Shown: in pieces, positions 4,888 to 61,195 of the stretch
Layout of the letters: each line of letters begins with the position of its first letter
Numbering within the stretch: position 1 is the first letter of the stretch
From: Cetorhinus maximus
Taxonomy: Eukaryota
Direction of reading: 5' to 3'
Length of the DNA: 64,000 bases
Assembly (NCBI RefSeq): GCF_964194155.1
Contig: NC_135909.1
Span: forward strand, 21,080,001 to 21,144,000
Notes under the pieces: generated by a model
The model's database searches: none
Told to the model about the DNA's origin: nothing
What the model saw: only the letters and a program-made list of their open reading frames with translations
Program-made: the position numbers and the translations under genes

Positions 4888-4904
4888 TAATGATGCTCAG
4901 TTGA

Positions 4905-9040: not shown

Positions 9041-9574
9041 TCAAACAAAAACCTCATTTAAAAAGTCACGGCCCTTTCCCACCCCACCCCCTCCTGCCAT
9101 TGGCCGTGAGGCTTTGTGTCTTCTTGAGGCTGCAAAATGTGCTGGAGAAATTCAAGTTCCTCCCCCCTCACGCAATCCCTCCAGTTTCCTCTGTTCCTTC
9201 AGCTCTCACCTCACTCTCCCACCTCTTACTGCCTCCCTCCCTTCCTCTACCCCTCTCTACCTCCTTCCCACTATTGCATGCTCTTTCCCTCCCTCTCCTC
9301 CTTCTCACCATCCCTCTCCTCCTTCTTTCCTCTCTCTCTACCTCCCTCGCTCTCTCTCTTGTGAAAGTCAACTTACCTTGAAGTTGAGAGCAGAGGTCCG
9401 GAACTTCAAATCCCAACAAGCCTCGCAATTGAGCCTTTTTCAGTCCTTTGGGCTGAGGACTGGCCCAGCGCCCCTGCGCATAAAGATGACAAAGGGGCGA
9501 AAACCCAGGTCATGTGGCTAGGAGCATCAAAAACATTGGAGATAAAGTGTTCCAGGCAAGTAACAGTGAGAGGG

Positions 9575-39759: not shown

Positions 39760-40172
39760 GTCACTCTGCCTCAGTTGGGAGTTGAGTGAACAAATTGTGG
39801 GTTGATGTCCCACTCCAGTAGATCCAGACCAGCACTGGGGGAGTGCTGCACTGTTGGAGGTGTCATGTTTTGGATGAAAAGTTAAACTGAGACCCTGTCT
39901 ACCTGTTAATACCAAAGGTTATATCTGGTACATTATTTGAAGAGCTGGCAGTTCTCCCCGTGTCTTGGAACAACATCACTCTCTCAACCAACATGACCAG
40001 AAACTCCTCACCCCGTCAAATCTCATTCACTCTTTGTGAGACTTTGCTGAAAGCTGATTGGCTTCAATGTTTCCTATAGAACAGTATCAGTACTTCAGAA
40101 GCAATCGCCAGTCTGTGAAACTCTTTGGACTCTTCTCATGACAGGAAAGGTTTGATATAAATGTCCGATTTT
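39760..40172 (+). mobile_element. DeuSINE-superfamily SINE (SacSINE1-like)
   Basis: gggagtgctgcactgttggaggtg..ttttggatga..gttaaactgag and gttctccccgtgtcttgg..ccctcaacc-type Deu-domain sequence; 3' end gaaagg..tatataaatg-like; family name is from recall. Confidence 0.65.
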
Positions 40173-41443
40173 TCATTTCACTCTCTCTGGTCTGAGATTG
40201 TGGGTCTGGTGGGGTCCAATCTGAGAAAAATCCCTTGGACTGCCCTTCCGGACAGAGAATGAGTCTGTACAGGTTGAGGGGAGGGAGGGATGTGTGGGTT
40301 TTAATTAAAAATAAAAGAGGTGAGGTTGATGTGTGATCCAGAGTCATTCCAGTAATACTGACAGAGTCAGCTTCAGGTTTTCACATTGATCTCCCTCCCT
40401 CTGTGTGCAGAAGAATCACTCAATTCATTCTTCATTTTGGATTTTAGTGTACAGGCGGGCTTGCTTTGTGAATGGAGGATAAACTGTTCAAAAGGCCTGT
40501 GAGGAAACTGGGGAGTTTCTCTTTAGAGAACCTGACCAGTCAATATGTTGTGTTCGAATACAGTGAAAGATCTGGTGATGGATTCCCAGCAGCCCGAGCT
40601 CTCCAAGTTCTTACTGCATGAAATCTTCGTTCCTGGGAAACAGGCTGTTTGATTGTTTCAGTCCAGTGAGCCCTGACCCTGTGTTCCTGCTGTCTGAATA
40701 ATGGGCTGTACTCTGAAATAAAACTTACTGCTTTGATCACAGCTTCATATCCATGTCTTGTTTCTCCTTAGGATCAGTGTGTCCCAGGACAAGGTGTTTA
40801 GGGATGAATGAGGCTGGGAGAAGATGTGGGAATTGCAAGGAATGGGAAGTGGGGAATCACTCCAGAGAATCTCTGAAAGTTCAGAATAACCCAATAAGGA
40901 AGGGACTGAGAGAAGACAGGGGTCTTAGGGTGTCAGCACTCTGACCATCCACAGAGCAAGCTATCTCACAAATATCAGAGGTGGGAGAAGGAGCGAAGGC
41001 GATGGTAGGCGTTTAAGGGGACGAGGAAAGTGGGTCGGGAATTGGTTCATGGGGTGGGGAAGGGTTTCAAAGGGAGGATTGGTGGCTAAGGGGCAGAGAA
41101 GGGGTTGGGAAGAGGAATGTTTTCGAACGTACGAACATATGAAGATAGGAATTCGGAGCAGGAGTCGGTCAATCAGGCCCTCGAGCCCGCTCTGCCATTT
41201 GATAAGATCATGATCGATCTGATCGCGGCCTCAACTCCACATTCCGCCTGTCCCCATAACCTTTCACTCCCTTGTCAGTCAGGGGAAAAAAATCACCCTG
41301 GCTGCTGCAATTTCAATAAGATGGACATTGTTGCAGATTGAAGGAGCATCTCCTTCACTCCCATTGAGGGAGCAGGAGAATCCAGCGGGAATTGCTCACT
41401 TTTCATGGCTTCCTGGGAATTGACCAAGTTTCGCTGGAAGCAG

Positions 41444-41513
41444 CAGCGAGACAGGGACTGGAATCCTCGGCCCTCAGATTACAAAGCTGATCCTTTCCCA
41501 ATGGGTCAGAGGC
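41444..41513 (-). pseudogene. Degenerate tRNA-Lys(TTT)-like sequence
   Basis: Reverse complement ...GGAAAGGATCAGCTTTGTAATCTGAGGGCCGAGGATTCCAGTCCCTGT vs Lys-TTT GTAGAGCATCAGACTTTTAATCTGAGGGTCCAGGGTTCAAGTCCCTGT. Confidence 0.5.
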
Positions 41514-41979
41514 TGGGGAAAGGGCTTTACCAGGTGGGGAAGAGTTTCAGTGGGTGGGGAAGGAGATCAGGAGGAGGAGACGAGGGTGCAGTGTTGATGG
41601 GAGGGGGATTGGGGCTCGTTCAGTGGTGCAGGGCTGTAGACGGGTTTCAGAGGGTGCGGCCATCACATACAAAATAGGCTGAGTGGCCTTTTCAGTGTTT
41701 TCTGTGACTCCTTTCTATGTTTCTATGAAAAAAGCAAAATATTGCATGTAAATATTTTCCTTCACAAACTCAGAACATCCCAAAGAGCTTTACAGACAAT
41801 GAATTCCTTTTAAAGTGTAGTCACTGCTGTGGGAAATACAGAAACTACATTTCACTGATGTCAATTAAAACAGTAACTGGACTGCGTAAAGCCAGAGGGT
41901 GAGAGAGGAGGAACCCGGGGGAGAGGAAGGGGGAAACAAATGGAGGGAATGGGATCCAGGTAGGGGAAGGAGGAAAGCA

Positions 41980-43260
41980 AGATACAGGCAGAGTGGTTTC
42001 GGGAGGGAATTCCAGAGCTTAGGGCCCAGGAGCTGAAGGCACAGCCACCAGTGATGGAGTGATTAAAATCAGGGATGTCCTGACATTAGTGGAGCTCAGA
42101 TTTCTCAGAGCATTGTCGGCCTGGAGGAGATTCCAGAGATAGGGAGAGGTGAGGTCATGAAGGAATTTCAAAACAAGGGTGAGAATTTTATAATTGAGAC
42201 CAGGATGCGGTATAGGTTAACGTGCTCAGGGGTGATGGGTGACCGCCATTTGGAGTGAACTCAGATCCAGGAAGCAGAGTTTTGGATGAGCTTCACTCTC
42301 TGGAGGGTGAAAAATGGGAGATTGGCCGGGAGTGTGTTTGAATGGTCAAATCTAGAGGTAACAAAAGCATGGACGAGGGTTTGAGCAGTGGATCAAGGTT
42401 TCAGGTACAGGTGAGTTGAGGCATAGTGACATGGGAAGGTTGTGGCATAGCGGTGTTGGTAATTATTGGTAATTAACTAGATTGGTAATCCAGAGACCTC
42501 GGGTAATGCCCTGGGGACTCTGGGTTCAAATCCCACCACGGCAGATGGTGGATATTGAATTCAGTATAAAAAAAAGTCTAATGATGACCATGAAACCATT
42601 GTCAATTGTTGTAAAAACCCATCTGGTTCACTAATTTCCTTTAGGGAAGGAAATCTGCCGTCCTTACCTGGTCTGGCCTACATGTGAGCCTCAAGGGCAA
42701 TTAGGGATGGACAATAAATGCTGACCTAGCCAGCGACACTCACATTAAAATAAAATGTGCAATGTTACAGACCTGGGAATAGGTGATCTTGGTGAAGGAA
42801 CTGGTATGTGGTCAGAAGCTCATTTCAGGGTGAAGTGAGGTGCCGAGGTTATGAGAGTTTGTTTCAGTCTCAGACAGTGACCAGGGAGAGGGATAGAGTA
42901 AGTGACTGGGAATGGAGTTTGTAGTGTGGTCTTTGGTCTTCTGAATATTTAGTTGGGGGAATTTTCTGCTTATCCAGTAAAACATGTTGGATAAGAAGTC
43001 TGGTCATTTAATGACAGTGGAGGGGTTGTGAGAGGTGATGGTGAAGTGGAGCTGGGTGTTATCAGCATACATGTAATAACTAACACTGTGTTTTCAGGTA
43101 ATGTCACCCACGGGCAGCATATTGATGAGAAATAGGAGGAGCCAAGGATATATCCCTGGGGGATTGCAGAGGTAACAGAGCAGGAGTGGGAAGAGAAGCC
43201 ATTGCAGGTGATACTCTGGAAAGATTAGAATGGGAACAGGCGAGTGCAGCCTGACCCAGC
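41980..43260 (-). mobile_element. L2-type LINE fragment, interrupted by a SINE
   Basis: Minus strand reads HMYADNTQLHF (~43045-43075), LLFLINMLPVGDI, AFVTSRFDHSN, LNIQKTK. Confidence 0.75.
42432..42752 (+). mobile_element. tRNA-derived SINE (internally deleted)
   Basis: tggcatagcgg A box, gggttcaaatccc B box, tail caagggcaattagggatggacaataaatgctgacctagccagcgac shared with the LINE 3' end at 31760-31820. Confidence 0.85.
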
Positions 43261-43884
43261 TGATCAATCCCTCCTCATCCTTCTCAACCGTTGACATTGT
43301 TGACTTCACCATCCTCCTCCAATGTCTTTCCACTGTCAGGTCAGTGTTCACAGCAGATGAAGATGATAATGTACCTGACATTCCAGGAAAACCAATGATG
43401 ATTCAAGGACTAGGGGTCAGTAAAGTTAACAAGTGTAGCGAAGACGTGAGTTCTTGATCACCTGTATCTTGGGATCCACGTCAATGTGTGTGGTGAGTGT
43501 GACAGGATAGGGGCATTCTGCTCAGTCAGGAACACCCAGACTAACTGTAAGAGAGAAGCTGTAATTCAAACCAAAGAATGAGGGATATCCACTCAGAGGA
43601 AACTGAGCCTGAGAGAGAGTACAGGGAAATCCCAGCCCTGTATGTGCTGAATGAGCTACTTTCACCAGGTGTGGTGCAGAGACACACAGGCACACAGTAT
43701 CTATTCACAGCCTGTGCTCAGTGAGGTGCTCTCACCCAGGCACTGAAACCCACACATGGAGCACAGGAAGATCCCAGTCTCTGTGCTGAGTGGTCTGACT
43801 CCAGGGGTTTGATGAATTACTGCAACACCTCCACTGGCGAGGCTGGTGAACTGCAGCATGACATGTTTACATAGGAAGCTGCCA

Positions 43885-44170
43885 TTGGAAACCCTGAGCA
43901 GAGAATTCCAAAGATTCACAGTGATGAAATTTCCCCTCATCTCAGTCCTAAATGATCATTATCTGAGACAGTGCTCGTGTTTTAGATTCCCCAATCAGCG
44001 GAAACAATCTCCCAGTTTTTACCGTATCAAGCCCCATTCAGAATCTTGTATGTTTCAATGAGATCGCCTCTCATTCTTCCAAACACTAGAGAGATAAAAA
44101 AGCCAAATTTGATCAGCGTCTCATCGTAGGACAATCACCACATCCCAGGGACCACTTTAGTGAAACTTTG
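43885..44170 (-). mobile_element. CR1 3' fragment
   Basis: agagaattccaaagattcac..gaaatttcccctcatctcagtcctaaatg, the CR1 tail region in reverse; similar fragments at 26855-27040, 41130-41280 and 48505-48945. Confidence 0.75.
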
Positions 44171-44765
44171 CTTCGGTTTTAAAATTCACTCCCAATTCAG
44201 TTTGATAGTTTCACATCGAAGGAACAATCTGTAATGGGCAGGTAGGAAGACCCATTCACAACATTCTGTAATGGGACCCAGTCCAATTCAATCATTGTAA
44301 AGATAACACATCACAGATTAGAGATTGGTGCCTGGTGACAGGAGCAGCCGAGGGAGTGAATCCAGAGTCCAGGCTTCTGGTGTAAGAAGTTAGAAAGTGA
44401 CATTAAAGTTTCTGCACCCCAGCGGTTAAAGGTTAATGAATTAACATTTCCCAACAAGTAAACACACTGGAAAAGGAGAAGACTGGCACATTCCCTTTAA
44501 ATCCACTTTAACTGAGTGGGAGGAGGTGGAACATTAACAGGTGAGGCCAAGAAATTGGACAAAGGGTCAGGGACCAATGTTCAGTTTACATCACAAACAC
44601 TGAATAGAGAAACAGACATTCCGCTGGGAGAGAAACTGCATTTTGGAGAAACATGTGATCGGATTGGAAAGCATTGGAAAATTGACCTACATTCCTCCAG
44701 CAAGATATTTATCATTAACTCAATATGGGAAAAGATGGTGCAGCTTTTTCAGAGAGATTGTGGGT

Positions 44766-44781
44766 GGCTCTTAAAAGAGCC
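44766..44781 (-). terminator. Histone 3' stem-loop of the H2B pseudogene
   Basis: Reverse complement GGCTCTTTTAAGAGCC followed by ACCCA and a purine-rich HDE-like GAAAAAGCTG. Confidence 0.92.
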
Positions 44782-44818
44782 GTTGTGTTGTGAATGTTTT
44801 TCAGTCCATTGTGGGGTT

Positions 44819-45175
44819 TTACTTGGAGCTGGTGTACTTGGTCACCGCCTTTGTCCCTTCCGACACGGCGTGCTTGGCCAGTTCCCCGGGCAGCAGCAGG
44901 CGCACGGCGGTCTGGATCTCCCGGGAGCTGATGGTGCTGCGCTTGTTGTAATGGGCCAGGCGGGAAGCCTCACCCGCGATGCGCTCGAAAATATCGCTCA
45001 CGAACGAGTTCATGATGCTCATGGCCTTGGAGGAGATGCCGGTGTCGGGATGAACCTGCTTCATCACTTTGTAGATGTAGATGAAGTAACTCTCCTTCCT
45101 CAAATTTTCCTGAACATTCCTGCCCTTTACTCAGAGGTTTCTTTCACCCTTTCTTGGCAACTGTTTCCTTCTCTT
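44819..45175 (-). pseudogene. H2B: Histone H2B pseudogene (histone fold intact; N-terminal tail decayed; no start codon or promoter adjacent)
   Basis: [27 protein letters not shown]...KYTSSK*; upstream reads GAA GAG AAG GAA ACA GTT GCC AAG AAA GGG TGA with a later frameshift, then the poly(A) of a LINE. Confidence 0.9.
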
Positions 45176-47215
45176 CTTTTTTTGCCTCCAGAAATATACT
45201 TTATTCATAAAACGTATAGGAGTACATTGCAAACCATTTCAACTTGAAAATTACCGCAAGTGCAACAAAGTTCAACTTCTCCCCACCCCTAGGTGCCTTT
45301 CCACAGTTGTAATTCCCCTGATGTTTATAATATATGTTCCATGTCAGGAATACAGCCCAAGGGCAATTTTTTTCAAACTGAAACATTACAGAAACTGCAA
45401 CAGAACTCAACTTGCCTTCATGCAGCAAGTTCCTCTCTGAGGTGCTTCAATCTAATTTCTGTTACTCATGATATTCACAAAGTACAATCAATGTCAGGCA
45501 TACAGCCCCAGGGGTGCTATAAAATTCTTCAGGCCCTCAGTGCACTATGGGTGAAAGGCATTCAGCAGTGACATTTCCCCATTGAACCTCTGTGGTGGCT
45601 GTTCCAAGCTTTAATGTATTCCTCAGCACATAGTCTTGGATCTTGGAATGTGCCAGTCTATATCACTCAAAAGATAGGCAAGTTTCGGGCAGACCAAAGA
45701 GCTGATGATCCTACAGCTGCAGCTGATGTTTATCTTGGTGTGTGTCCCTGGGAACAGGCCATAGAGCACTGAGTCCTACATCACAGAGCTGCTCAGGATG
45801 AACCTCGACAAACACCACTGCATCTCTAGCCAGACCTTCTTGGAAAAGGTACATCCCAGAAGGTGCAGAACAATGGTCTCTTCTCCACTACAGCCACCGA
45901 GTGTGATGAGCAGAAGGGGAGAGACTTTGGGCTTGGAGGAAGGACATGATGGGGAGGACCTTTCTCACCACCAGCCAAGCTACATCCTAGGGGTTGTTTG
46001 AAAGTTCTGGTGATGAGGCTTTCTGCCAAAAGACTTTGATAGTTCACTGAGCAGGCTATCTGACAGAATCTACCATTGCCTTATCCTGCTGTACCTGTAG
46101 ATCATTACGTGGGTACCACTGCTGGATGGAGTTGTCCTCAAAGATGTTTTTCTGCATAAAATTTTCTATAAGTGATCCATCCTCATGACACCGGGTCAGG
46201 TAGAACCTCAGCACATATTGACACTTGGTGTTTGCTTCCTGAGGGTCTATGCACAGCTTGATGCAGCCACACACAACAGGGCCATTAGGATGAGGGTGAT
46301 GTTGGTCACATTTTGTCCCCATCTATCTAGAGGTTTGTATGCCATGTCCCTGTGAACATGGTCCATTTTCAACCTCCGGATAAAGCAGAAGAAAGCTCGG
46401 GTGATCACCACAGTGTAGGAGTGATGAAAGGGCCAAACCTGCACCATGTACAACATCAAGAGTGTTATTACCTGATGACCAGTTTCTTAGCAGTGATGGA
46501 GAGGGAGCGTCGCTCCCGCATGCCCAGTTTTTCTTTGACCATAGCTACTTGCTCCTTTCAGTCTCCAGTCCATGCCCAGGACCATATCCCCAGCACCTTC
46601 AGGCAGCCTGACCTGACAGTGAAGGGGACAAAGAAATGGTCAGCCTAGGTCCCCAAAGAACATGACGTCACTCTTGACACAATTTAGCTTGGCTCCCGAG
46701 GCCAGTTTGAACCAATCACAGGTCTGTACACTATCAGTGGATCCAAGCAGAAGACGATGACGTTGTCCATGTACAGGGAGGCTTTGACCTGAGTGCCTCC
46801 GCTGCCTGGGATTGTCACCCTTCTTATACCCGAATCCTTCCTGATGGACTCAGCAAAATGTCCTATGCAAAATATGAACAGGAGAGGGGAGAGAGTGCTT
46901 CAGATTTATCAGAAAGATTTCCAATTCTCACCCATTGGCTGAAACTGCACTACTGAGGTTTATGTAGAGCAGCTGGACCCAACTGCAGATTCCCTCTCCA
47001 AACTCCATTTTGGAGGGCAGATCCATCAAGTAGGTGTGTGATATTCTGCCATAGGCCTTCTCCTGGCCCAAGCTGATGAGGTCGGTCTCCTGCCGCCCCC
47101 ATCCTGCAATTATTTCCCTGAGTAGTGAGAGGCTATCAGATATCTTCTTGCCATGTACAGTGCAGGTCCAGTCAGGGTGGATCACCAGCCCCAGAGCCCA
47201 TTGGAAATGGCCTTG
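45176..47215 (-). mobile_element. 5'-truncated Tx1/L1-clade LINE
   Basis: ISDSLSLLRE, SLGQEKAYGRISHTYL, ICSWVQLLY, ASLYMDNV (YMDD-like); minus-strand 3' end AATAAAGTATATTT...A8. Confidence 0.8.
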
Positions 47216-47299
47216 GACTGAATTTTGTAGTCCACATTCAGCAGTGAAATGGATCACACATTTCTAATTTCTTCCCTTTCCCGCTATTCAGCGATTGGA

Positions 47300-50200
47300 T
47301 TTCTATTCTGTCTCTTCAGATATTTGTCCTCTGTAGCTATGTGAATGTGGCCAATCAGTAACTGATATTTGGATAAAGCTTTTAATCTATGTCAGTTTGT
47401 GGCAGTTGATTACAACAATTAATTCATAACATTAATCTCCAATTTATGTTTTTTTAAATCTCCACACCATGCAGCTTCAAAGGACGTGTTTTCCTGTGTT
47501 CCTGTCAGTCTCTCCTATGTCAGTCTGTATTTTAATCTGCACCTGTCAGTCTCTGCTACATGAGTGTGGGTTTGACTCTGTCTCTTTCCATCTCCCAAAT
47601 GTGGATGTGGCTTTTCATCTGCTATTGTCAGTTCCTGATAGGTGACAATCTGTTTTTGTTTGTATTTGCCAATCTCTGTTCAGTGAATGCAGGTTTTGTT
47701 TCCATCAATCACTGATGTGTGTGTGTGTGGGTTTTACTCCTTGTCTGTCAGTAGGTAATTTTGTATTTTATTCTGTACTGTTGGTATTTGGTATGGAAAG
47801 TGTTTTTTTTACTCCATATTTCGCAGTCTGTGGTATGGTGTGCAATTTGTCTGCACATGCTCATTTCTGATATGTGAAGGTTTTTTTTACCCTGTACATA
47901 TCAATATTTGGCATAATTGGGTGTTTTTTTGTAGCTTCTAGTTTCTTATTTTGAGTGTGGCTTTACTGTGTTTCTGGCAGTGTCGGGTATGTGTGAATGA
48001 GTGTTTTTTTTAAACTCCCTGTGTCTAAAAGTTTCTCATATGTGAATGTGACTTTGACAATCTACCTGTCAGGTTTGGTAGGTGTGAGTGTGTTGTACAA
48101 AGCAGCTGTCAGTTCCTGTTGAGCCAGTGATGGCCTTACACATATACTCGAAATTAACAGGGATGATGTAAGTGTTTTATTTTGAACAAGTTGGTTGCTT
48201 GCTGGTGAGTTTAGTTTCACATTGTGTCTTTCTGTAGTTTGAGAGTGTGGGTTTTAGTCTGTATCTCCTGTTTTGTTTTGAGATGAGTGGGCATTTTATG
48301 CTATTATAATTTCCATTTCTGGAACGTCAATGTGCCTTTTACACTGAATTGGTCAGTATCTGATGTGTGAGCATGCCCTTTACCTGCCATTTTCTGTTAT
48401 GAGTGTAGGTTTTAGTCTGCCTATCATTTTCTGTCATGTAATTGTGGGATACACACTATTCTTATTAACTTCTCTCATGCAATTTCACATTTAATCTTAT
48501 TTTTTAAGAACATAATAAATAGGACCAGGAGTAGGTCATTCAGCCCCTTGAATATGCTCCACTATTCAATAAGACCATGGCTGATATAACTGTGACCTTT
48601 CCTGCCTGGCCCCCAAAGCCTCGACTCCCTCGTCAATCAGAAATCAGTCCAACACAGCTTTGAATTTATTCAAAGGTCCAGCCTCCACTGCTCTCCGGGG
48701 AAGAGAATTCCAAAATCTAACCATCCTTTGGGAGAAAAAGTCCTTCTCATTGCAGTCTAAAATGGGAGACACTTTATTATAAGCTGTGGACCATAGTTCT
48801 AGACTCCTCATGAGGGGGAACGTCCTCCCAGAATCTGCCCTGTCAAGTCCCCTCAGAAACTTATATTTCTAAATAAGATCACCTCCCATTCTTCTCAACT
48901 CCACTGAGTATTGGCCTAAATCGAGCAACCTTTCCTCATACGACCAATTTGTCTCATCTATGTCAATGTTGGTTTTACTCTGATTCCCTCACTGTCCGAT
49001 ATGTGATTGTGGGCTTTGTCCTGTAACTTTTGGTTCCTGCTAAGTGTCTGGATTTTAATCTCTATCTGTTAGACTCTGCTATGATCGTATGCATTTCCTG
49101 ATTTATTATATCTAACTCTATAACCGTCAGTAAGTGGTATGACCGTGTGGATTTATATTAAATATGTGATTTCCTGCCATGTTAGTGTTGTTTTCACTCT
49201 GTACAAGTCAGTATTTTGGAAGACTGGGTTATATACTGCACCGGTCAAACTTTTAAGTGGGGCAATGTGCTTTAATCTGTTTCTGTCAATCTCTTTTATG
49301 TAAGTACCTAATTTTATATCCACCTGTCTGTTTCTGAAAAATGGGTGTAATCTGTATTGTGTCCTGCCCAGTTTCTGGTTCAGTGAGAATTAGTTTGCTC
49401 TATCTCCATCTGTTTCTGCTATGAGAATCTGGGCTTTATTGTGCAAGTCACTTACTGATGTGTGATTGTGGATTTTAACTGTTTCAGTTTTGGATAGGTA
49501 GACTTAATTATTTTTGCCTATTTTTGTTACATGAGTGTGTATTTTATTTTGTTCCTGTCGTTTTTTGCTGTTGTGAATGCTGGTTTTGCTTTGGGTCTGT
49601 CAATTTCTTAAACATGTATCTGGGTTTTCCTTTGTACTTGGACATTTCCAGTGTGGGAGAAAAGGCCTTACTCTTTATATGTTAATTTCTGACAAGTGAA
49701 TATGGGATTGCTGTGAACCTCAGTGTCTGATTTGTTATTTTTGGCTTTAATCTTTACCTGACAGTTTCCAGTCTGTGAATCAGGATCTTCTTCTGCACCT
49801 GTCAGTTACAGCTAGGTGAGTGTCTATTTTTCTCTGTACAAGTTAGTCTCTGGTATGGAAGAAAGGTTTTTCTCCTGTACCTTTTAAATTCTGGCAAGTG
49901 AATGTGCGGTCACTCTGTGCCTATCAATTTGTTAGATGTTATTTTAGATTTAACTCTGCAATTGTGTGTGTCTGATATGAGAATGTTGATCTAATTCTGT
50001 ACCTGTCAGTTACTGTAACAGAATATGTTTTTATTCAGTACCTCTTCATTTTGTTTAATGAGATGTAGGTTTTACTGTGAATCTTTTAACCTGTAGAATG
50101 TAGATGTTGCTATGATTCGGTGTCTGTGTCTGATTGGTGAACATTTGTATTCATTTCCCTGTCTGTTCAAAACCTGTGAAAGTTGATTTTATTATGGACT

Positions 50201-52900
50201 TCTTTATAATTGAAATGTGACTGTGGGTTTTGTGCTTTGCCTGCACGTCTATGATAAGTGAGTGTGGCTTTTTCCCTACAATGGGATATCTCGCTCGAGT
50301 GTGACCATCTTTTTTTTTGTGCTTGTTAGTTTATGGTAAATGATTGAAAGGTTTAATCTTACTTCGCCACACAACTACTACAGCTTCAGGAACAGGTCAA
50401 AGCAGGTCCACAGTGAGTAACTGACCTTTGCACTCCTTAAAGCCTATTCTGTGAGTTACAACCTACTAGTCAGAAGTGTGATTAAATACTTTCCACTACT
50501 GAGCGCAATCCCAACAACACTCATGCAGATTAATAATATTCTGGATAAAGTATCTGAGTGACACACAATTCATGAGTCCATTCCCTCCCCCACTCTCACA
50601 CAGTTCGTACCATCTACGAGATCTGCTGCAGCAACGGAAAAAGACTACTTCAACAGCATCCTTCTAACCCGCAACCTGTTATACCTAGAAGAACATGTAC
50701 AGAAGGTGCCTGGAATAACACCACCTGCAAAGTCACCCCCAATTCAAACACCATCCTGACTTGACAATATGTCACCATTCAGTCATCATCACTGGGTCAA
50801 AATCCTGGAACTTGCTACCTAACAACAAATTTGCCACACCTATGGATGACAGACAGCATCAGACAGAAGGCAGTCCACCACCGCCTTCATAATGACAATT
50901 GGGGAGGAGCAAAACTCCTGGACTTTCTAGTGACACAAACATCCAAAGAAGAAATCAAACAATATTAGTAACTGCTCTATGTGTGAAATACATTTGTTCA
51001 GTATCTGCTCATCACTGGTTCAATCTGTGAGTATGTAAATCATTTTGTATCTGCCAGTCACTGCAAGTGAATGGATGTGGGATTCATTATGTATTCATCA
51101 TTCTCTGCTTCACCATGAGAGTTTTGGACTAATTCATTAGCTGATAATTGTATGCCTTTATCATATTCTGGTAATGAATGCGCTTGTTGTAATAATTCTA
51201 TATCTGACTGTTTCTGGTACTAAATGCAATTCTGGGATTCATGCTGTAACTTCTAGTTCTGTGAACTGTACATGAGTGAGATTTGTTCAATATCTGTCAC
51301 TGTTTTTTTGTGAGATGGTGGAATTCATTCTCTATCTGCAAATCTTGTACCATGTGAGAGCAATAGGGTTCACTCTGCATCTATCAATCTCTGGACTGAA
51401 TGTGTGAGAGAGATTTATTGTGTGTGTGTCAGTCTCTGCTTCTATATGCAAGTCCTGATGTCAATCTGTACCTCCCAGTCTCCGCTCTGTGAGTGTGGTC
51501 ACATTCACTGTCTGCCACTGTTCTGTGTGACTGTGGGATTCATTCTGTGATCATAAGCCCTTGGGACTCAGCAAGTGTGAGAGTCAATCTGCATCTCTCC
51601 ATTTGTCATCCATTATTAGGTTAATTCTGTAACTGTCATTCATTGAGGCTGTGTTGTTATGGCCTTACCTCTCCATCTGTTAGTCTCTGATTTGGGATGA
51701 GAGTGTGGGATATATTCTGTATCTGACAGACTCTGGTCATGTGTGTCAGTGTGGATTATTTTCTCTTTCTGCCATTCTCTGGTACTGAATGGGACAGTTA
51801 ATTTAGTTCTGTATCTGTCAGTCTCGTGTGCTTTTTGCAAAAGAGTTTTTAATAATGTATCTGTCTTTGCTACTGTGTGTGAATATGAGATGAATTATGT
51901 ACCCATCAGTCTGTGGAACTGAATGTGATTTTGTGATCCATTCCATCTGTCAGTCCCCAGAATTACAACTGAATGTGGAGCTCATTCTGAAGCTGCCATT
52001 ATCTGGAAGTGAGTGAGAGTTTAATGTTAATTCTACTGCCATTAGTCTTTGAATAATTATATGCGTACCTGATTTATTTTGTATGTATCAGTCTCTGGTA
52101 TTGTATCCAAATGCTGTTTTCTGTCTGTATCTGTCAGTTGTGGTACTTTGTACGAGTGCAGGATGAGCTACATAAATGCAATTCTTTGATCCTGTGATTG
52201 ATCTATTCAATTTGCTTCAAATTTTCTGCTGTGAAATGAAAAGTGTGTTTTATTCTTTGCTTTCTTTCCGTTTCCTGTGGAGTGTAATACTGTTGCATTC
52301 AACCTGCTTCTGTCAGTCTTTTATGTTGCATGTGAATGCCTTATTCCTTCTGTATCAGTCATCTCCTACAGAACTCCAGAAGCTTGACACAACCCAGGAC
52401 AAAGCAGCCTGCTTGATTAGTGCCACATCCACAAACATTAACTCCCTCCACCACTGACACACAGTAGCAGCAGTGTATACCATCTACAAGATGAGCTGTA
52501 GGAACTCACCAAGCCTCCTTAGACAGCACCTTCCAAACCTGTATTCTATATTTTTCAATCTTATCTGCTCAATGCGAATTAGTTATTGTTGGCCATCAAT
52601 CTCAGGTACAATAAGTGAGTGTGGACTTTGTGATACCTTTGTCAGTTCCTGGTACTGTATATGACAGTGGACTATATTCTGCATCTTTCTGTCAACGACA
52701 GTGTATATGAAAGTAGCTTTAATTTTGTAGTTTTCAATCTCTAGATTGAATGTGTGCTTGGAATTATTGTTTATATGTCTGTCTCTAGGTGGATGAATGA
52801 GTTTTGGATTTATTCTCTATCTATGCATCTCTGGTGTTGAATGTAACTGGGATTTCATAAATTATGGTATCAATATTTGTTTAACCTTTGCTTTCTTGTA
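47300..52900 (+). repeat. Long degenerate satellite, ~40-46-bp period (approx. tgtgagtgtgggttttattctgtatctgtcagtctctggtac), with CR1/LINE fragments at ~48505-48945, 50540-50960 and 52365-52540
   Basis: Recurrent ctgtcagt / tgtgagtgtgg / attctgtatct motifs at regular spacing; T/G strand bias; few ORFs. Confidence 0.75.
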
Positions 52901-53999
52901 AAATATTTATTCAATGTTTTCTTTCACAGCCGTAGGTTACATTCAGTAGTTTTGTATGGGATATGTAGTGCTGTTCAATTTGTATCTCTGTGAAAACAAA
53001 TTGAAATGATAACATATACATCGATCTGATACTTGGCCTGGTGTGTAATTTGTGCAGTTTTTAAAAGGAAATTGATACTTTAACTCGATGTTCTCGTCTA
53101 ACACTTAGTGAGATTTTGGAACTGGTATTTAATCTGTAGCCCGGTCTACACTCTGGGATACCTAACAGCAATGTATTCTGTATCTCACAAAAGGGTAAAT
53201 GTTGTCTGATGGAGTTAATAATTGGTATTTAATTTGTGGACAAGGTGACACTGTGTACTTAAAAATAATAGTGGGTTTGCTTTTGCCCTGGGATTGATGT
53301 ATCTAGTTCTCAGTTGTACTAGGTTGGAGTGCAATGGAAACAACTTCTCCCACCAATGCTCTGTTTTAATATTTTATTGAAAGGGCACCTCCCAACCTTT
53401 GGACCTATGTGGGTCTCTATACTGTTTCATTTTGGCCTAAAGGCCTGGCAGTATCTCTGTGCTTTGTGAGTGATATTGTACTCACTGTGAGTTGGAACCA
53501 TCAGGCTGCACTTTTCCTTGTTTCGAGGAATCATCTGGTTCCTTCAATTCTTTCCATGCACACAGAAAGCATAACTCCTTCACCTGAAGAATAGGTGAAG
53601 TAGAAGGTACAAAAGTGATAAATGTATTTTTTTCAAGTAATAATTATTATGAAGAATCAACAGAGCAAAACCAGCAGCACACGCAGTACTGGAACAATCA
53701 GTTTCTACTCATCTGTTTTTTGAGTAGATTTGTAACAAGTTTGTGACCTGCAGAGACAACCTGTCCTGTGCACTGCTCCTTGAATTAGGCTATCTGATGG
53801 AGAAGTGACCTTTGCAAGGGTCAAATTTCTCTTTACATCTCCCTTTGAACTAACAGTACACCCGGAAACAAGCAGGTACAGTTTAAAATGTCTCTTTCAC
53901 ACTTCTCACCTGGTGCCTGAAATTGATCTTCTTTGTGTAACTGGAAACATTGTTACTGTGCGGCTATTTTCCCCGCCATTCTCTGTCCAATAACAAGGG

Positions 54000-54620
54000 A
54001 CAGTGGGAGCCGGAACTAAGCCAGGAAGCTTCACTCGGGTTTGGGGAGAGAAAGCAGCAATGATCTTCAATGGCGAGTTCTTCTCACTCTGTCCAGACAC
54101 TGCTCGAGAATGGCCTCTCCCTTCCCCCCGCTCACTCCATGTTCCGGGAGCAGCTCGTGTTCCAGGGAGCCCATTAAAAACAGCCGCCGCCTCCGCCTCA
54201 GCTGCCCGGACACTCAATGCCAATCTCTGAGCATATCTGCGGACGCGGCTCCAAACCGATGCGCTGCTTTAAGCAGATGCTGTTTGTTCACTTCCCTCTG
54301 GGGCGGTGATGTCTCCGATCGCTGCTGAATTAAACCCTATTCCGCTCACTGAGTGAATGACGCTCTCGGCCATTGTTGGGGGAGGGGTTGCGCATGCGCT
54401 GTTATCCTCATGGTGACGACACTGGGGGCGGGCTTATACTGCGCGTGCGCATATTTGAGAAGCAATTCAGCCGCTAAAATCAATGGGAATTTTGCCCATT
54501 TCACTCTCATCACAGAGAGAACAAAATCTCCAAACCTGTGTCGGCGCGGGGGGCAAGGGGCGTTGGGCGCGAGTGGACGTGTAGCAGAAGCGGGGACCAT
54601 TCGCGCGTTTGAATCTCTGT
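54000..54620 (-). promoter_or_regulatory. CpG-island promoter with possible non-coding first exon
   Basis: NRF1 sites TGCGCATGCGC (54389-54399) and TGCGCGTGCGCA (54440-54451), GC box at 54424-54433, YY1-like AATGGCCG on minus (~54367-54374), TCACTGAGTGA at 54346-54356; candidate GTGAG donors on minus near 54089 and 53909. Confidence 0.6.
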
Positions 54621-54837
54621 TTGTCCCATTTCGATATTCATTTTGCGTCCATCCCCTGCAGATTGTTTGTTATTAAACTGTCTCTCATCCCGTTAAATTT
54701 ACACTTTCTACAATCTCGGATATTAGTATTTTTTAGTTTTCACATTTTTGAAATTTGTAATTGAATTGTATTCCATTATGCTCACTCGTAATAAAATCAT
54801 TGATCATAGAGTCAATTACTCAATACTAACTGTATTA

Positions 54838-57025
54838 TGGCCGTCTCCCCTTACCTCCCTCTGGACCATGACCCCACCGCCGAACATCAAGCCATTGTTT
54901 CCAGGACTGTGACTGACCTCACCTCCTCTGGATATCTTCACTCCACAGCTTCTAACCTCAGTCTCCCAACCTCGGACGGCCCGCTACTACCGCCTGCCAA
55001 AAATCCAGAAACAGGACTGTCCAGTTAGACTGACCTTGTCAGCATGTTCTTGCCCCACGGAACTCACTTCTTCTCATCTTGACTCCGTTCTCTCTCCCCT
55101 TCTCCAGTCTCTTCTCACCTACATCCATGATTCATCTGGTGCCCTATATCAAATCAACAATTTCCAGTTCCCTGGCCCCAACCGCATCCTCTTCACCATG
55201 GATGTCCAATCCCTATCAACCTCCATCCCCCACCAGGATGGTTTAAGGGCTCTCCGCTTCTTCCTTGAACAGAGGCCTGAACAATCCCCATCCACCACCA
55301 ATCTCCTCTGACTGGCTGAACTTGTACTCTCACTGGACAATTCCTCCTTGAACGTGACTCACTTCCTCTAAATAAAAGGTGTCATTATGGGTACCTGCAT
55401 GGGCCCCAGTTATGCCTGTCTCTTTATGAGGTATATGAAACATTCCTTGTTCCAGTCCTACTCAGGCCCCCTCCCACAACTCTTTTTCTGGTAGCCCCCT
55501 CCCACAACTCTTTTTCTGGTACATTGATGACTGCGTTGGTGCCGCTTCATGCTCTCGTCTGGACTTGGAAAATGTATTAATTTTGCTTCCAATTTCCACC
55601 CCTCCATCACTTTCACATGGTCCATCACTGACATTTTCCTTCCCATCCTTGACCTCCCTGTTTCAATTTTTGGTGATCGTTCATCAAAATTCAATACAAG
55701 CCCGCCGACTCCCACAGCTACCTCGACTACAACTTCTCACACCCTGCTTCCTTTAAGGACTCCATCCCATTCTCTTTGTTCCTTCGTCTCCACAGCATCT
55801 GTTCTGATGATGCCACTTTCCAAAACACTGATTTTAACATGTCTTCCTGCTTCCTTAACCGAGGTTTCCTGCCCACGGTGGTTGACAGAGCCCTCAGCCG
55901 TGTCCGACCCATTTCCCGTGCCTCTGCCCTCACATTGTCCTCTCCCTCCCAGAAACATGATAGGGTCCCCCTTGTCCTCACTTTTTACCCCATCAGCATT
56001 AAAAGGATCATCCTCCACCATTTCCGCCAACCCCAGGATGATGCCACCACCAAACATTTCTTCTCTTCACCTTGCCTGGCAGCATTCCATAGGGACCGCT
56101 CCCCTCAGGACACCCTGGTCCACTCCACCATCATCCCATACACTTTAACCCGCTGCCATGGTACCTTCCCATGCAACTGCAGAAGGAGCAACACCTGCCT
56201 CTTTACACTACCCCCTCCTCAAATCCAAGGGCCCAAACACTCCTTTCAAGTAAAGCAGCACTTCACTTGCACCCTCCCAACATGGTCTCCTCTACATTGG
56301 AGAGACCAAACGTAGACTGGGTGACCGCTTTGCAGAACACCTTCCGTCTGTTCACAATCATGACCCGGACCTCCCTGTCGCTTGCCATTTCAACATCCCA
56401 TCCTGCTCTCATGTCCATTCTTGGCCTGCTGCAACGTTCCAAACTGGAGGAACAGCACCTCATCTTTCGACTAGGCACTTTACAGCCTTCTGGACTTAAC
56501 ACTGAGTTCAACAACTTCAGATCATGAACTCTCCCCTCGATCCCCACCCCCTTTCCGATCCCCCTTTTTCCAATAATTTATATCTTTTTAAATGTATTTT
56601 TCTTTTCCCACCAATTTCCATTATTTTTAAATGTATTTCCATCCATTGTTTCATCTCCACCTTTTAGCCTATTTCGATCCCTTCCCCCCACCCCACCCCA
56701 CTAGTGCCATCTGTCACTTGCTCGTCCTGCTTTCTACCCTTAATGTCACCATCAGCACATTCCTTAGATAATATCACCACCATCAACACCCCTTTGTCCT
56801 TTTGTCTATGACATCTTTGGCAATCTCTCTTTTGCTTCCACCTATCACTGGCCCTCCACCCAGCTCTACCTGTCCCACCCCCCTCAACCAGCTAATATTT
56901 CACCACATTCCAATATTCCCTCGGTTCTGATGAAGAGACATACGGACTCGAAACGTTAACTGTGTTCCTCTCCACAGATGCTGTTAGACCTGGTGAGTTT
57001 TTCCAGCTACTTTTATTTTTGTTTT
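54838..57025 (+). mobile_element. Penelope-like element (RT and GIY-YIG endonuclease, degenerate) with 3' terminal repeat
   Basis: FTMDVQSL..IPHQDGL, MGTCMGPSYACLFM, YIDD (tacattgatgac ~55520), LYIGETKRRLGDRFAEHL (~56290-56345), KLEEQHLIFRLGTLQPSGLN.EF. Confidence 0.92.
56923..56961 (+). ncRNA. Minimal type I hammerhead ribozyme motif in the Penelope terminal repeat
   Basis: GGTT-CTGATGA-A-GAGAC-ATACG-GACTC-GAAA-C-GTT-AACT: core CUGAUGA and GAAA, stem II with one mismatch, palindromic ACGT stem III, stem I GGTT/AACT. Confidence 0.7.
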
Positions 57026-57026
57026 G

Positions 57027-57284
57027 GTGCACTATGGCAGAAAGGCTTTAGACAGCGACCTTTCCCCATTGCGCCTTTGCGGCGTTTGCCCCAAGCTTTA
57101 GTGCTTCCCTCAGCACATAGCCCTGGACCTTGGCATGTGCCAGTCTGCAACAGTCAGCCGGGGAAGACCAGCAAGTTTCAGGCAGACCAAAGGGTGTCTT
57201 TCACCGAGTTGATGATCCTCCAGCTGCAGTTGATGTTTGTCTCAGTGTGTGTCCCTGGGAACAGCCCATAGAGCAGAGTCCTGC
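57027..57284 (-). mobile_element. Tx1/L1-clade LINE fragment (same family as 45176-47215)
   Basis: Aligns with 45540-45780 (gtgcactatgg, tttccccattg, cctcagcacatag, ggcagaccaaag, cagctgcag.tgatgttt, gtgtgtccctgg.aacag.ccatagagca). Confidence 0.85.
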
Positions 57285-57560
57285 TTCCAGAGATTTTCCC
57301 AACCTCACACTTTCACAAAGAATGAGGAAATCCTCTCACATTCGCTTCTCTTACATCTTCGGGAGGAATGGTGCTGCGGGCGTTGCTGATTGGTCACTTA
57401 GTGCTGCCTCTCATAATGTTATTCATATCACCAATCAGATATCTACTGAACTCACCAATCCGGAGACTCCACGGGGAGAGGGCGGAAAATACCGGCGCCA
57501 AATTATCAGATTCCAACCGTTTTTTTTCACATTTTAAAAGCCCGCCAAACTTCTCAAAAA
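57284..57560 (-). pseudogene. Orphan histone-type promoter, 5'UTR and first codons (probably H2A)
   Basis: Minus strand GAAA-ATC-TCT-GGA-AG (ATG TCT GGA AGA with ATG>ATC, 57284-57294), decayed TATA-like GATGTAAGAG (~57347-57357), CCAAT boxes at ~57389, 57431 and 57455, E2F-like TTTTCCGCC, TTTGGCGCC and TTTGGCGGG. Confidence 0.55.
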
Positions 57561-58373
57561 ACAGGACATAATATAGTACTAATTGGAAAGACCGAACTCA
57601 ATATACGAATGTTAGATTTACTTAATCTCGCTCTCTCCTTTCCTAGTCTACAGTTTATCTCTGTCCGTTTCTGATTTTAATTCTGGGTTTATCTGTATCT
57701 AAAAACAAGCTGAAAATATCGGCGCCAAGTTTTAGGAATCCAAACTTTCTTTTTATTCGACGTCGAAGACGGACGATATATTTATAAAACAAAAAATAGT
57801 GTTCAGATAGAAATTCCCATTAATGGTTAACATTTTATCCCAAGTTCCAGATTCGCTTTTAGAATCCGGAATCTATGCGGGGTTAATTTCGATCCTTTAT
57901 GAAACCCTTTAACCAGACGGCAGAAAGTCTCATTTACACAGTTCTGCAAACGGACGGTTTATTGTAGATATTCGACAGTCAAAAGTTAACATTTTTGGTG
58001 TAAATTTGCCAGCGTTGAGACTGAAAGTTCCTGCACAACCGGGGCTGATAGGAAATGAACTGATCGATTATTGAGACCAAACTTGACCGAAACTGGAAAC
58101 TGTCGCATTTGCGTTCTATTCTCCCTCTCTCCAAAACCAGGGAAAGGGGCCGAATATGAACACGTCTGAGTACAAATTACAGAGGGTCAGCGGACAGTCA
58201 TTAATTTATGGGCCATTATTAACAACAGCGAATGATTGAACAGAGTGATAAATCTACATTAGCCTGAAAGTGGGAAAAAAAACTAACAGAAAACATCGTT
58301 CGAAAATGTTCAAATTAGAAACACGACAAATTAAACATTGAGATGATATAGCTTTCTCGGAGAGATTGTGGGT

Positions 58374-58389
58374 GGCTCTTAAAAGAGCC
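58374..58389 (-). terminator. Histone 3' stem-loop (SLBP site) of H2B
   Basis: Reverse complement CAAC-GGCTCTTTTAAGAGCC-ACCCA, followed by HDE-like GAGAAAGCT. Confidence 0.95.
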
Positions 58390-58426
58390 GTTGTGTTTCG
58401 GGTGTTTTTCAGTCCATTGTGGGGTT

Positions 58427-58804
58427 TTACTTGGAGCTGGTGTACTTGGTCACCGCCTTTGTCCCTTCCGACACGGCGTGCTTGGCCAGTTCCCCGGGCA
58501 GCAGCAGGCGCACGGCGGTCTGGATCTCCCGGGAGCTGATGGTGCTGCGCTTGTTGTAATGGGCCAGGCGGGAAGCCTCACCCGCGATGCGCTCGAAAAT
58601 ATCGCTCACGAACGAGTTCATGATGCTCATGGCCTTGGAGGAGATGCCGGTGTCGGGGTGAACCTGCTTCATCACTTTGTAGATGTAGATGGAGTAACTC
58701 TCCTTCCTCGACTTTCGCCGCTTCTTGCCGCCCTTTGCTACCGGTTTAGTCACCGCTTTCTTGGCGCCCTTCTTAGCAACTGGTTTCTTCTTCTCTTCAA
58801 CCAT
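58427..58804 (-). CDS. H2B: Replication-dependent histone H2B, 125 aa
   Basis: [16 protein letters not shown]...[27 protein letters not shown]...[10 protein letters not shown]; intronless; Kozak AAGATGG; TATA upstream, stem-loop downstream. Confidence 0.97.
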
Positions 58805-58854
58805 CTTCAATCTCAATTTCACACACACAAATAAACCAAACCCCTTCCGTCCGC

Positions 58855-59010
58855 TCATTATATAGACAGTATGACAGATATATGCTAATGAGGAATGGGA
58901 GAACAATGATTCTGATTAGACATTTTAAAAACAAAACGGGATTTATTTTGTGGTTTTTTTTGATTGGATAGCAAAACCGACCAATCATATTTAGGTTTCT
59001 CCACCAATCA
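58855..59010 (-). promoter_or_regulatory. H2B promoter
   Basis: TATATAA at 58858-58864, variant octamer ATTAGCAT at 58882-58889, CCAAT on minus at 58963-58967 and on plus at 58981 and 59004. Confidence 0.88.
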
Positions 59011-59168
59011 TAAGCCTCCTTACTACAATCAGGAAATACATTTTCCAAAGCCCCTCTCCAGCCGGAGTTTCTCAGTGTGTAAAGATACACCGGGAAATGT
59101 CGCCTGGCTGTCGGTGCGAGGGACTGTCCGGGAATGTGGGGTTCCTTCAGGAACTGTGAGTGTCTGGT

Positions 59169-60233
59169 CTTCTTCTTGTCGTGTCCACGGACAGTCTATA
59201 CATGGCCCAGCCAGAACTGGACACATTGTTGCGCCTTGTTGTTGAATTCGGCAAGATCTGCAACAGTGCAGGGTTCCTCTAGCGATAGGCATTGCAGGAG
59301 ATGTTGCATAGTCTGTGGCTCAGTTCTACATTCACAAGTTGTCGGACTGGTTGTATATCCTCATTTGCTTAGTGACACCTTTGAACGACCTACACCAGTC
59401 CTAAGTCTGTTAAGGCACTTCCATGTTGCCCAGTTGCAATTAGCTCCTGGGGGAAGGCTTTCATCCGGTAGAATTTCCAGCACTGGGGGTTGTTCGAGAC
59501 TGGCGAGCCAGTCTTTCCACGAGGCGATGCAGGCTTCAGATGGGGTGGATTGTAATGGAACAACACTGTTCAGGAAGCTCTTCCTTGACTTTAGGCGGCT
59601 GGGTGTAGGTGTATGACCATGTAGAGGGTGCCTCTCATCTGATGTTTGACGGAGTCGCTCTTTCTTGCTGGCTACCGTTCTTCTTATATCAGGGGGAGCG
59701 ATACCCGCCAGGATATACAGGCTGTTGGTGTTTGTTGGTTTTAAACAACCTGTGATACGTTGGCAGCTTGCATTCAGAACGACATCCATCTTCTTAGCGT
59801 GAGTAGATCTTTCCCATGCAGGGCAGGCGTATTCCCCAGTGGAATAGCAAAGAGCAAGTGCACTGGTTCGCAATGTTTTCGGGCTTGCTCCCCATTTTGT
59901 GTTATTCAGGATGTTGTTTTGTGCGCTCACTTTTGCCTTTGTCTTTTTGATGTGGTTCTTGAAGGTGAGGCATCTGTCAAGGGTGACTCCTAAGTAGATA
60001 GGGTGCTCGCAATGCGTCAGTGTTGCTCCACACCAGGTTACTTTAAGCTGGCGTTTGGATTCACGCTTTCTGAGGTGGAATGCACAAACTTGCATCTTTG
60101 ATGGGTTTGCGTAAAGGTGGTTTTCTTCATAGTAGGATGTTAGTCCCTCCAAGGCCTCAGAAAGTGTTTTCTCCACGGTGTTAAAATCAGTGCTTTGGGC
60201 AGTGGCACATAAGTCATCAGCATATATAAAACA
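59169..60233 (-). mobile_element. Vingi (Ingi-related) non-LTR retrotransposon, 5'-truncated, young
   Basis: FIYADDL, YLGVTLDR.LTF..H, WGA.P.TLRTSALALCYS..EYACPAW, ITGCLKPT, LAGIAPP.IRR, WKCLNRLRTGVGR, C-terminal CECRTEPQTMQHLLQC; (GAA)n tail; 8-bp TSD TGTCTGGT at 59161-59168 and 60234-60241. Confidence 0.85.
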
Positions 60234-60241
60234 TGTCTGGT

Positions 60242-61195
60242 AATGTGTGTGATTTACTCACTCTCTGATTCTGTGTGTGTTTGGAAGGCTGTGGTACAGT
60301 GTGCGAGTGTCGGGTTTATTCTGTATCTGTGACTTGATGGGACCATGTCTCAGTGTTGGGTTCACTTGGCATCCTGAAACTCATTGTGCATCTGTCCGTT
60401 ATTGGTGCATGTAAACAAATTCATTTTCTCCTCGGGACTATAAACCAGAGCGGAATTAAATCAGTATGTGTTTCTCTCAGCCACAGAAATTGTTGGATTG
60501 ATTCTGTACCTGTCAGTCTCTGTAACTGGATGTTAATGAGATTCTGTATTTGTCAGTCTCTGGCACTGTAGGTCAGTGTGTTATCGGTTCTGTATCTTTC
60601 AGTCTGTGTTACTATATCTGAGTCTGTGAACTTCTCATTCACTATCAGTGCCTGATACTGTGTGTGAATGTGAGATTAATTATGTACCTGTCAACATCCG
60701 TTGCTGAATGACAGTGTGGAGTTCAGTCTGTATTGGCACTGATTCAATGTGAGTCATTCTCAGTAGCCCCATCTCTTGCAATGTTTGACGCAGTTAATCC
60801 CAGTGTCACATACAGCACCAAAGACTGCCAAATCTGGAATCTGTCTCAATGGGTTGTACTGGATATGAGTGTGGTTAATTCTCTTTTAATCAGTGGTGCT
60901 GTGTGGAAGTTTGCAATCCATTTTCTTTCTGTTGAACTCTGGGACGCTGTGTAAGCGTTGGTTCCATTTTCTAGCGCAGTGCCTGATGCTTTGCTGAAAT
61001 GAAGAATTCATTTTGTCTCTATCAGTCTTTGGCTCTGAGATTCCTCTGTGTTTCTCAGTCTGTGGTACTGTGTGAATGTCAGATTCATTCTGTATCTCTA
61101 CATCTCTGGGACATTTGAGATTCATCCTGTATCTATCAGTCAGTGTGCTTTGTGTGATGTGGGATAACTCTGCATCATCTTCAGTCTGCAAAACT
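60242..61195 (+). repeat. Degenerate ~46-bp satellite (same family as 47.3-52.9 kb)
   Basis: attctgtacctgtcagtctctg, ggtactgtgtgaatgt units. Confidence 0.75.

Follow-up and report, generated by a model that had tools for sequence, protein, structure and literature searches.

Insertions of a U2-targeting Keno retrotransposon family at core histone gene starts of Cetorhinus maximus keep a near-constant distance from the TATA box

Keno is presented, in the parts of the literature drawn on here, as a long interspersed nuclear element (LINE) of the Tx1 clade which has an apurinic/apyrimidinic (AP) endonuclease and is specific for U2 small nuclear RNA (snRNA) genes (Kojima and Fujiwara 2004, as cited in PMC4640811, PMC4494074, PMC6136364). 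Target choice in this clade is described, in the excerpts used of PMC4494074, as mainly a matter of endonuclease sequence specificity, the criterion for target specificity being more than 20% of flanks. Position-specific integration at RNA polymerase III (Pol III) genes is described, in comparable excerpts, for the Dictyostelium elements TRE5 and TRE3 and for Ty1 and Ty3 of yeast (PMC5391098, PMC5006619, PMC6101501, PMC5911963). We analysed two LINE copies (elements 1 and 2) in a window of 64,000 nucleotides (nt) from Cetorhinus maximus (C32:21,080,001–21,144,000 of a 4.0-Gb genome; contigs are labelled by C and loci by L with a number). A preliminary description of this window had seen the two copies at the first codons of two histone genes and had proposed a possible histone-targeting retrotransposon. 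Our preferred reading, held with fair confidence, is that both are old insertions of a U2-targeting Keno which also lands repeatedly about 66 bases past the TATA box in the four core histone genes, likely because what it recognizes is not histone sequence but a place about 35 bases past an active start of RNA polymerase II (Pol II) transcription.

The family is a U2-targeting Keno with a large dispersed population. Its full-length representative (L131, about 5.2 kb) contains two open reading frames (ORFs): ORF1 has zinc knuckles (PF23057 and PF23058 above the cut-off, and a PF00098 hit), and ORF2 has AP endonuclease, reverse transcriptase (RT) and zf-RVT domains (PF03372, PF00078 and PF13966). 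The endonuclease resembles L1 endonuclease structures, and both window copies align to ORF2 of this type. Architecture and U2 target together point to the Tx1 clade. Tails that adjoin U2 nt 38 number 783; arrays on C29 hold most of the 100 that were listed, and Rfam U2 was found in three of four scanned loci with a tail at the U2 site. Insertion is thus at U2 nt 37/38 with the remainder of U2 as 3′ flank, as in Keno. It is not exclusive, as Keno in its original sense would be, since there are thousands of dispersed copies: exact 3′ ends number at least 3,629 genome-wide by the tail pattern, or about 4,800 allowing for that pattern's 25% loss, which gives a U2 share of roughly 16–22% (two non-identical patterns are compared). 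None of the first 100 of the 3,629 tails listed lies in a histone gene, and inspection of 100 listed tail flanks by eye revealed no (TC)n or (TTC)n repeats, the target of the Kibi/Koshi type. Of the 581 matches to the 5′-end pattern, 100 were listed; almost every one of these has a head of U2 nt 1–33 or 1–37, whole or partial, and none has a histone leader. A DNA search with the young 3′ untranslated region (UTR) gave no matches (very common words were skipped), and sequence patterns were used instead.

The Keno family is active. Both ORFs are open in five of seven near-full-length copies checked, intact copies in histone genes included. Young copies residing in histone genes and in U2 genes are both about 97–99% identical to a dispersed U2-headed copy, and the window copies, which belong to old subfamilies, are 74–84% identical to the young U2-resident family.

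Several features of the U2-related copies were seen in passing. Hundreds of U2 genes in tandem arrays carrying Keno occupy C29:0.17–4.8 Mb and beyond. U2 nt 38 onward has been 3′-transduced onto other chromosomes (L253–L258). From the 5′ ends of L229 and L115, the head of the element is U2 nt 1–33 with a U1-like remnant behind it; in an older copy the head is of U1 alone (about 31 nt; weak Rfam match, E 0.6).

Histone 5′ ends, those of H3 and H4 included, are a real and nucleotide-precise hot spot of this family. Thirty events with distinct 5′ ends or subfamily were collected: eight in H2A, three in H4, four in H3 and 15 in H2B. All are in sense orientation, mostly with target-site duplications (TSDs) of about 1–19 bp, and some stand in tandem stacks; from the TSDs, the stacks and the differing 5′ truncation points we regard the events as independent. 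A tail followed by GTCTGGAAG occurs nine times, eight of them at H2A starts (six lineages) and once elsewhere, and five of the 100 H2A anchors listed (of 199) have a tail. Tail-to-H2B junctions gave 17 matches genome-wide, tail-to-H3 junctions six.

The excess over chance was estimated from two samples. The first comprised 60 regions, each 10 kb long with an H2A gene at its centre, and contained 187 core genes (63 H2A, 52 H2B, 37 H4 and 35 H3); one region was shifted to cover an already-seen H2B insertion, and four H2A-inserted loci fetched earlier were omitted. Eleven of its 16 young copies are at gene starts (six H2B, three H4, two H3), three in coding sequence (CDS) and two intergenic. From the second sample (40 regions) a known duplicate (L327) was dropped, and an old fragment of 70% identity (L330) and an old duplicate of element 2 (L169) were not counted as young. 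In the pooled 0.99 Mb, 11 of 18 young copies are at the site, the target window being 0.17% of strand-positions; the binomial probability is about 1e-26, for a target window chosen post hoc. Young copies reach a density of about 27 per Mb in the first sample, against about 1.2 genome-wide. About 4% of the sampled histone genes are hit, which suggests, as an estimate, that histone sites hold about 1% of the family.

Across these events the distance from the TATA box to the nick is 64–68 bases in 24 of 30 (four genes, six promoter types), 71–72 in five, for which 1–3 bases are hidden by poly(A), and 74 in one. The modal distance from TATA to ATG differs between promoter types: 64–65 in H2A, 65 in H4, 75 in H3 of C32, 66 in H3 of C39, and 53 and 60 in the two H2B types. 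Relative to the ATG, the nick is at +1 to +3 in H2A, at +2 in H4, at −8, −8 and −4 in H3 of C32, at +2 in H3 of C39, at +11 to +18 in the 53 type of H2B and at +6, +6 and +14 in the 60 type. The site moves with 5′ UTR length, and both H3 types and both H2B types shift as predicted; for the 24 events at 64–68 bases the ATG offset spans −8 to +14. For three H3 and two long-UTR H2B events no TATA motif was found in the best paralog, and the modal distances 75 and 60 were used; element 1 was first matched to the wrong H2B type (59) and then given the modal 60, so that six values in all are modal-based. The sequences cut are unlike each other, with only 2–3 matches to the 15-nt U2 site in H2B and 3–5 in H3. 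The mark of a position-specific retrotransposon is that its distance from a promoter element stays fixed while the sequence changes, and this is what we observe.

Simpler target rules were tried and rejected. The rule of first codons or GAAG-rich sites in the preliminary description does not hold, as H3 is struck before its ATG, the site keeping to the TATA distance; a start-codon rule is ruled out by the H3 and H2B offsets, and a generic GAAG or microsatellite target by the listed tail flanks together with the TATA-distance geometry. Nor does mimicry of U2 by itself account for H2B and H3, where the flanks have little likeness to U2. A general preference for CpG islands was not evident among 30 loci on C1.

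Dispersed H2B copies, which are promoterless processed pseudogenes (18 fetched), provide a control. None of the 70 dispersed copies listed has a tail at H2B, against three of 30 on C32 (Fisher p=0.025); all 17 genome-wide tail-to-H2B matches are on cluster contigs, and 0/70 against 13 lineages in at most 144 gives p=0.006. The link between insertion and an active promoter drawn from these 70 retrocopies is correlative only, confounded by divergence and chromatin. The dispersed H2B pseudogenes (C1–C31: 70 of the first 100 matches listed; L210–L227) begin close to the transcription start site (TSS) and end at an A-rich tract that precedes the stem-loop, and no H2A anchor was found on C1–C31 among the matches listed; H2B mRNA seems to be selectively retrotransposed.

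Other structures occur at or near Keno target sites. A short interspersed nuclear element of about 130 bp (mini-SINE), which ends in ACTC and has a head that we take to be tRNA-like, is stacked with Keno at histone starts (L204:3197–3326, L136, L179, L188, L286, L291). It is young and has no poly(A); four of its six matches in scanned loci are at H2B or H3 starts, and we infer that it is mobilized by Keno. Duplications or deletions of about 10–20 bp over the +35 region, without an insert, are found in H3 (L137, L195, L298) and H2A (L163, L176, L295, L140) and are possibly scars of nicks mended without insertion. An inversion of about 8 kb separates two young Keno copies with reciprocally swapped flanks (L133/L134, C32:18.689–18.699 Mb), one at the H2A site before an element 2 duplicate, the other at an H2B site. 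A second recurrent hot spot consists of tandem monomers of about 120 bp plus the 5′ region of a LINE, presumably CR1-like (L290, C2:163.9 Mb; L291, C2:210.8 Mb; L292, C1:47.5 Mb; and further tail and head matches); it is possibly that LINE's internal promoter. At L112:1449–1520 a tRNA gene is preceded, at about 19 bp, by a Keno tail, and another Keno insertion lies downstream.

The window copies and their surroundings are listed in Table 1. They are the only family copies within the 64 kb and both have the orientation of their histone gene, as previously noted. The junction of poly(A) to H2B from codon 3 onward also proved real: a 7-A tail (45177–45183) abuts GAAGAGAAG, which is decayed H2B from CDS nt 7. 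Before this tail, element 1 retains the C-terminal half of the RT, the zinc-binding region and the 3′ UTR; in tblastn it matches amino acids (aa) 534–1117 of the young-family ORF2, with frameshifts. Its nick is at TATA+66 of the long-UTR H2B type (TATA–ATG distance 60), and a young independent copy occupies exactly this target nucleotide elsewhere (L275/L280). Element 2 (tblastn 73% to ORF2 aa 1054–1104) begins after ATC-TCT-GGA-AG, codons 1–4 of an H2A remnant whose ATG has decayed to ATC (57292–57294). The call of H2A, tentative until then, is right because the intact paralogs L086–L090 join the same promoter and 5′ UTR to a full H2A ORF. The same H2A site is used in L079–81 and L131, with a TSD of 9–10 bp. 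The suspicion that the junctions might be breakpoints was justified for the non-histone side of each copy, where the DNA is rearranged: the 5′ flank of element 1 is not an H2B promoter, and a Penelope-like element stands where the 3′ end of element 2 and the H2A body were lost. On the histone side each junction is a true insertion junction, and this side alone was kept. A paralog of the intact H2B gene bears a young Keno at CDS nt 15 in four block copies.

Table 1. Features of the window around the two Keno copies.
Feature	Positions	Strand	Basis
Element 1: old, 5′-truncated, decayed Keno-lineage (Tx1 clade) LINE	45177..47285	-	blastn 74–80% vs young full-length element, positions 3148–5215
H2B pseudogene, target of element 1: CDS nt 7 to stop (44819–44821) and 3′ stem-loop	44766..45176	-	93% to intact H2B; translation
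Element 2: old Keno fragment (family positions 4744–5020), 3′ end lost	57026..57283	-	84% to young family
H2A remnant, target of element 2: CCAAT boxes, TATA-like box (57350–57355), 5′ UTR, codons 1–4	57284..57530	-	Intact paralogs share promoter
Penelope-like element (label presumed)	54830..57025	+	RT and GIY-YIG remnants from translation; same junction in block copies
Intact long-UTR H2B gene, empty-site reference	58427..58864 (CDS 58427–58804; TATA box about 58857–58864)	-	
Segmental-duplication block with both elements	40102..61165 (minimal limits)	.	At least 24 copies, mostly C32 at 9–21 Mb

Elsewhere in the window are two internally repetitive ORF regions with a periodicity of about 84 bp (9563–11047 and 25044–26053), which we take to be probably C2H2 zinc-finger genes, and a gap of 200 N (8529–8728).

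The window copies are two old single insertions, multiplied at least 24-fold by segmental duplication. Among 40 listed matches to the 3′ UTR of element 1 are 25 close copies, all sharing the 3′ junction and the damaged H2B; its 5′ junction is common to all 24 full-span matches, and element 2 has 18 full-span copies of 91–100% identity. The 25 near-identical copies of element 1 belong to one duplicated block and were rejected as independent insertions. The excess over chance rests on the younger independent insertions elsewhere and not on the window duplicates. Of five divergent relatives of element 1, none is flanked by histone sequence.

LINEs prime reverse transcription at the nicked target. 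In the mechanism that we propose, the Keno complex would nick the template strand directly past Pol II at initiation or in its paused state, through tethering or through a structure exposed there, and reverse transcription would then be primed at the nick as in other LINEs. The same position rule may yield the U2 +37 site. Because full-length copies carry a head of U2 nt 1–33/37, the element is likely transcribed from the promoter behind which it lands, so that landing just past strong starts would be favoured. A weak intrinsic liking for ATCT or TCTG after the nick acts in addition. Copies in histone genes are probably for the most part dead ends, since the histone ATG upstream opens a frame of only 10–36 aa in six of seven copies checked. 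Master copies driven by histone promoters were rejected in view of these short frames and of the 0/100 listed heads with a histone leader. The exception among the seven, L279 (C678:61.5–66.8 kb), is a full-length copy in H2B with the H2B ATG in frame with ORF1 (556-aa open frame), and is a candidate for an active copy driven by a histone promoter. A wider proposal, about which we are somewhat more doubtful than convinced, is that the machinery of Pol II initiation or pausing directs Keno-type LINEs to nick the template strand about 35 nt past the starts of strong genes whose transcripts are not polyadenylated (U1, U2 and the replication-dependent histones), and perhaps past the internal promoters of other retrotransposons. 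On that view, the 'sequence specificity' of Keno for U2, and likewise the serial acquisition of U1/U2 heads in Tx1 elements and SINEU, would arise as side effects of a Pol II position rule.

A number of observations weigh against recognition of a Pol II start. The TSS was set about 32 bases past TATA from initiator-like motifs and the 5′ ends of H2B retrocopies and not from RNA; on that basis the nick would lie at about +33 to +37 in histone genes, similar to the +37 of U2. The H2A and H4 sites share seven of 15 positions with the U2 site, which is in about the top 5% of nearby positions, and insertions within the H2B CDS fall on ATCT, so that sequence matters too. Many of the 30 events were drawn from patterns limited to gene starts, and in one search the H2A flank was fixed. 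In the second sample neither of the two new young copies is at the site (one is intergenic, the other in an H2B CDS at ATCT); in the pooled samples seven of 18 are off site, four in CDS (one antisense) and three intergenic. No insertion was seen in H1 genes (seven H1 ORFs in one set, five H1 hits in another), and most genome-wide copies lie in low-CpG DNA without an evident promoter (30 loci). Finally, the H2B retrocopies are 80–97% identical to the genes and their chromatin is probably different, which confounds the promoter control.

In a rival account, a relaxed Keno endonuclease would read a weak signal in sequence or DNA shape (ATCT/TCTG-like, purine–pyrimidine steps), the histone clusters being open chromatin and the TATA distance marking the edge of a nucleosome-free region without any link to the transcription complex. 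We think this unlikely, yet the combination of open chromatin and sequence keeps real weight, as the liking for ATCT/TCTG is visible: besides the H2A and H4 sites and the CDS insertions at ATCT, about 13 of 100 listed genome-wide tails have TCT within the first four bases (by eye), the hot spot in the CR1-like 5′ monomers reads TTCTGGG, and young copies are dense around histone genes (about 27 against 1.2 per Mb). However, the H2B sites, which are hit most often, match the U2 site at only 2–3 of 15 positions; the AT-GGCC start of H3 on C32 was left unused in three events, whereas H3 on C39, with its shorter TATA–ATG distance, is cut exactly there; and the promoter-proximal events are all sense. 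This explanation is itself still partly positional and overlaps with recognition of a Pol II start. The GTCTG after the nick in H2A and H4, compared with ATCTG in U2, could also reflect guidance by RNA, in which read-through transcripts carrying U2 nt 38 onward or histone sequence past the poly(A) anneal to similar nicked DNA, and the 3′ transduction of U2 nt 38 onward to new places (L253–L258) fits such transcripts. But guidance of this kind leaves H2B and H3 unexplained, as their flanks are unlike U2, and likewise the mini-SINE at the same sites; with no histone leader on 100 listed full-length heads either, we consider it improbable.

That the recurrence is only apparent, produced by segmental duplication, gene conversion or assembly error from a few insertions, is true of both window copies and of several lineages (L079–81; L231/234/238/244; L249/250/252; L275/280). 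After such copies are collapsed, the events can still be told apart by where they are 5′-truncated, by the length of the TSD and by subfamily, gene and contig, which makes this a very improbable account of the whole. Least credible of all is a dedicated histone-specific Tx1 family that recognizes GAAG-rich first codons. The repeated precise insertions at H2A and H2B starts speak for it, and this much of the histone-targeting idea in the preliminary description stands. The young histone-resident copies are nevertheless nearly identical (about 97–99%) to a dispersed U2-headed copy, the family is Keno with 783 U2-site tails among at least 3,629 overall, and the H3 site is upstream of the ATG and not GAAG. 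A histone-specific family would have histone 5′ sequence in most flanks, and histone-start insertions number only in tens.

With recognition of a Pol II start as the preferred reading, a TATA distance that stays constant while the sequence varies suggests that targeting obeys a second rule, one linked to the promoter. Such a rule would show how these elements can move from one target to another among U1, U2 and histones and how they acquire snRNA heads; it is directly testable, since the family is active and intact members reside in histone genes. Keno insertions are also a steady source of histone gene loss and cluster rearrangement (compare the inversion of about 8 kb), and a LINE aimed just past Pol II starts would be of interest to builders of gene-insertion tools.

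The histone-promoter hot spot is best regarded as an addition to the known U2 targeting of Keno. With Keno, the present family shares the AP-type endonuclease and RT and the 3′ flank TCTGTTCTTATCAGTTTAAT that the excerpts of PMC6136364 quote, 37 nt into U2; it differs in its thousands of dispersed copies and in the second sharp hot spot, which lies at the same distance past histone promoters and has no sequence relation to U2 in H2B or H3. The crocodilian elements Tx1-Mar and SINEU, related to Keno in the tree of PMC4494074, likewise have heads derived from U1/U2, form tandem stacks in which a TSD separates the copies, and show preferential, non-exclusive targeting, with transcription from the flank proposed. 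Their target, in contrast, is a Mariner transposon, treated as a sequence preference, and the excerpts of that paper state neither a promoter-distance rule nor a histone target. The 5′ extension of SINEU-2B begins with position 275 of a Mariner copy, and insertions are concentrated around position 240 (PMC4494074, in part); the 35-nt gap is our own arithmetic, not given as a rule in the excerpted text, and may be comparable. Utopia reached the same U2 site in parallel but uses a restriction-like endonuclease, and no histone target is described in the excerpts of PMC4640811. Our search, which left Repbase and most subscription papers outside, found no published description of histone targeting or of a Pol II position rule for Tx1 elements. 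In TRE5 and Ty3, the distance from the transcription unit and not the sequence sets the site, which lies mostly outside the transcript. Position-specific integration as such is therefore known at Pol III genes, and the Keno family described here appears to work in a similar way, a likeness of behaviour and not a claim of class membership. What TRE5/TRE3 and Ty1/Ty3 have in common with it is a site set by position, TRE5-A being a non-LTR (long terminal repeat) element as well; the differences are that Keno here goes to Pol II genes, inside the transcript and in a vertebrate host, possibly by way of a tether.

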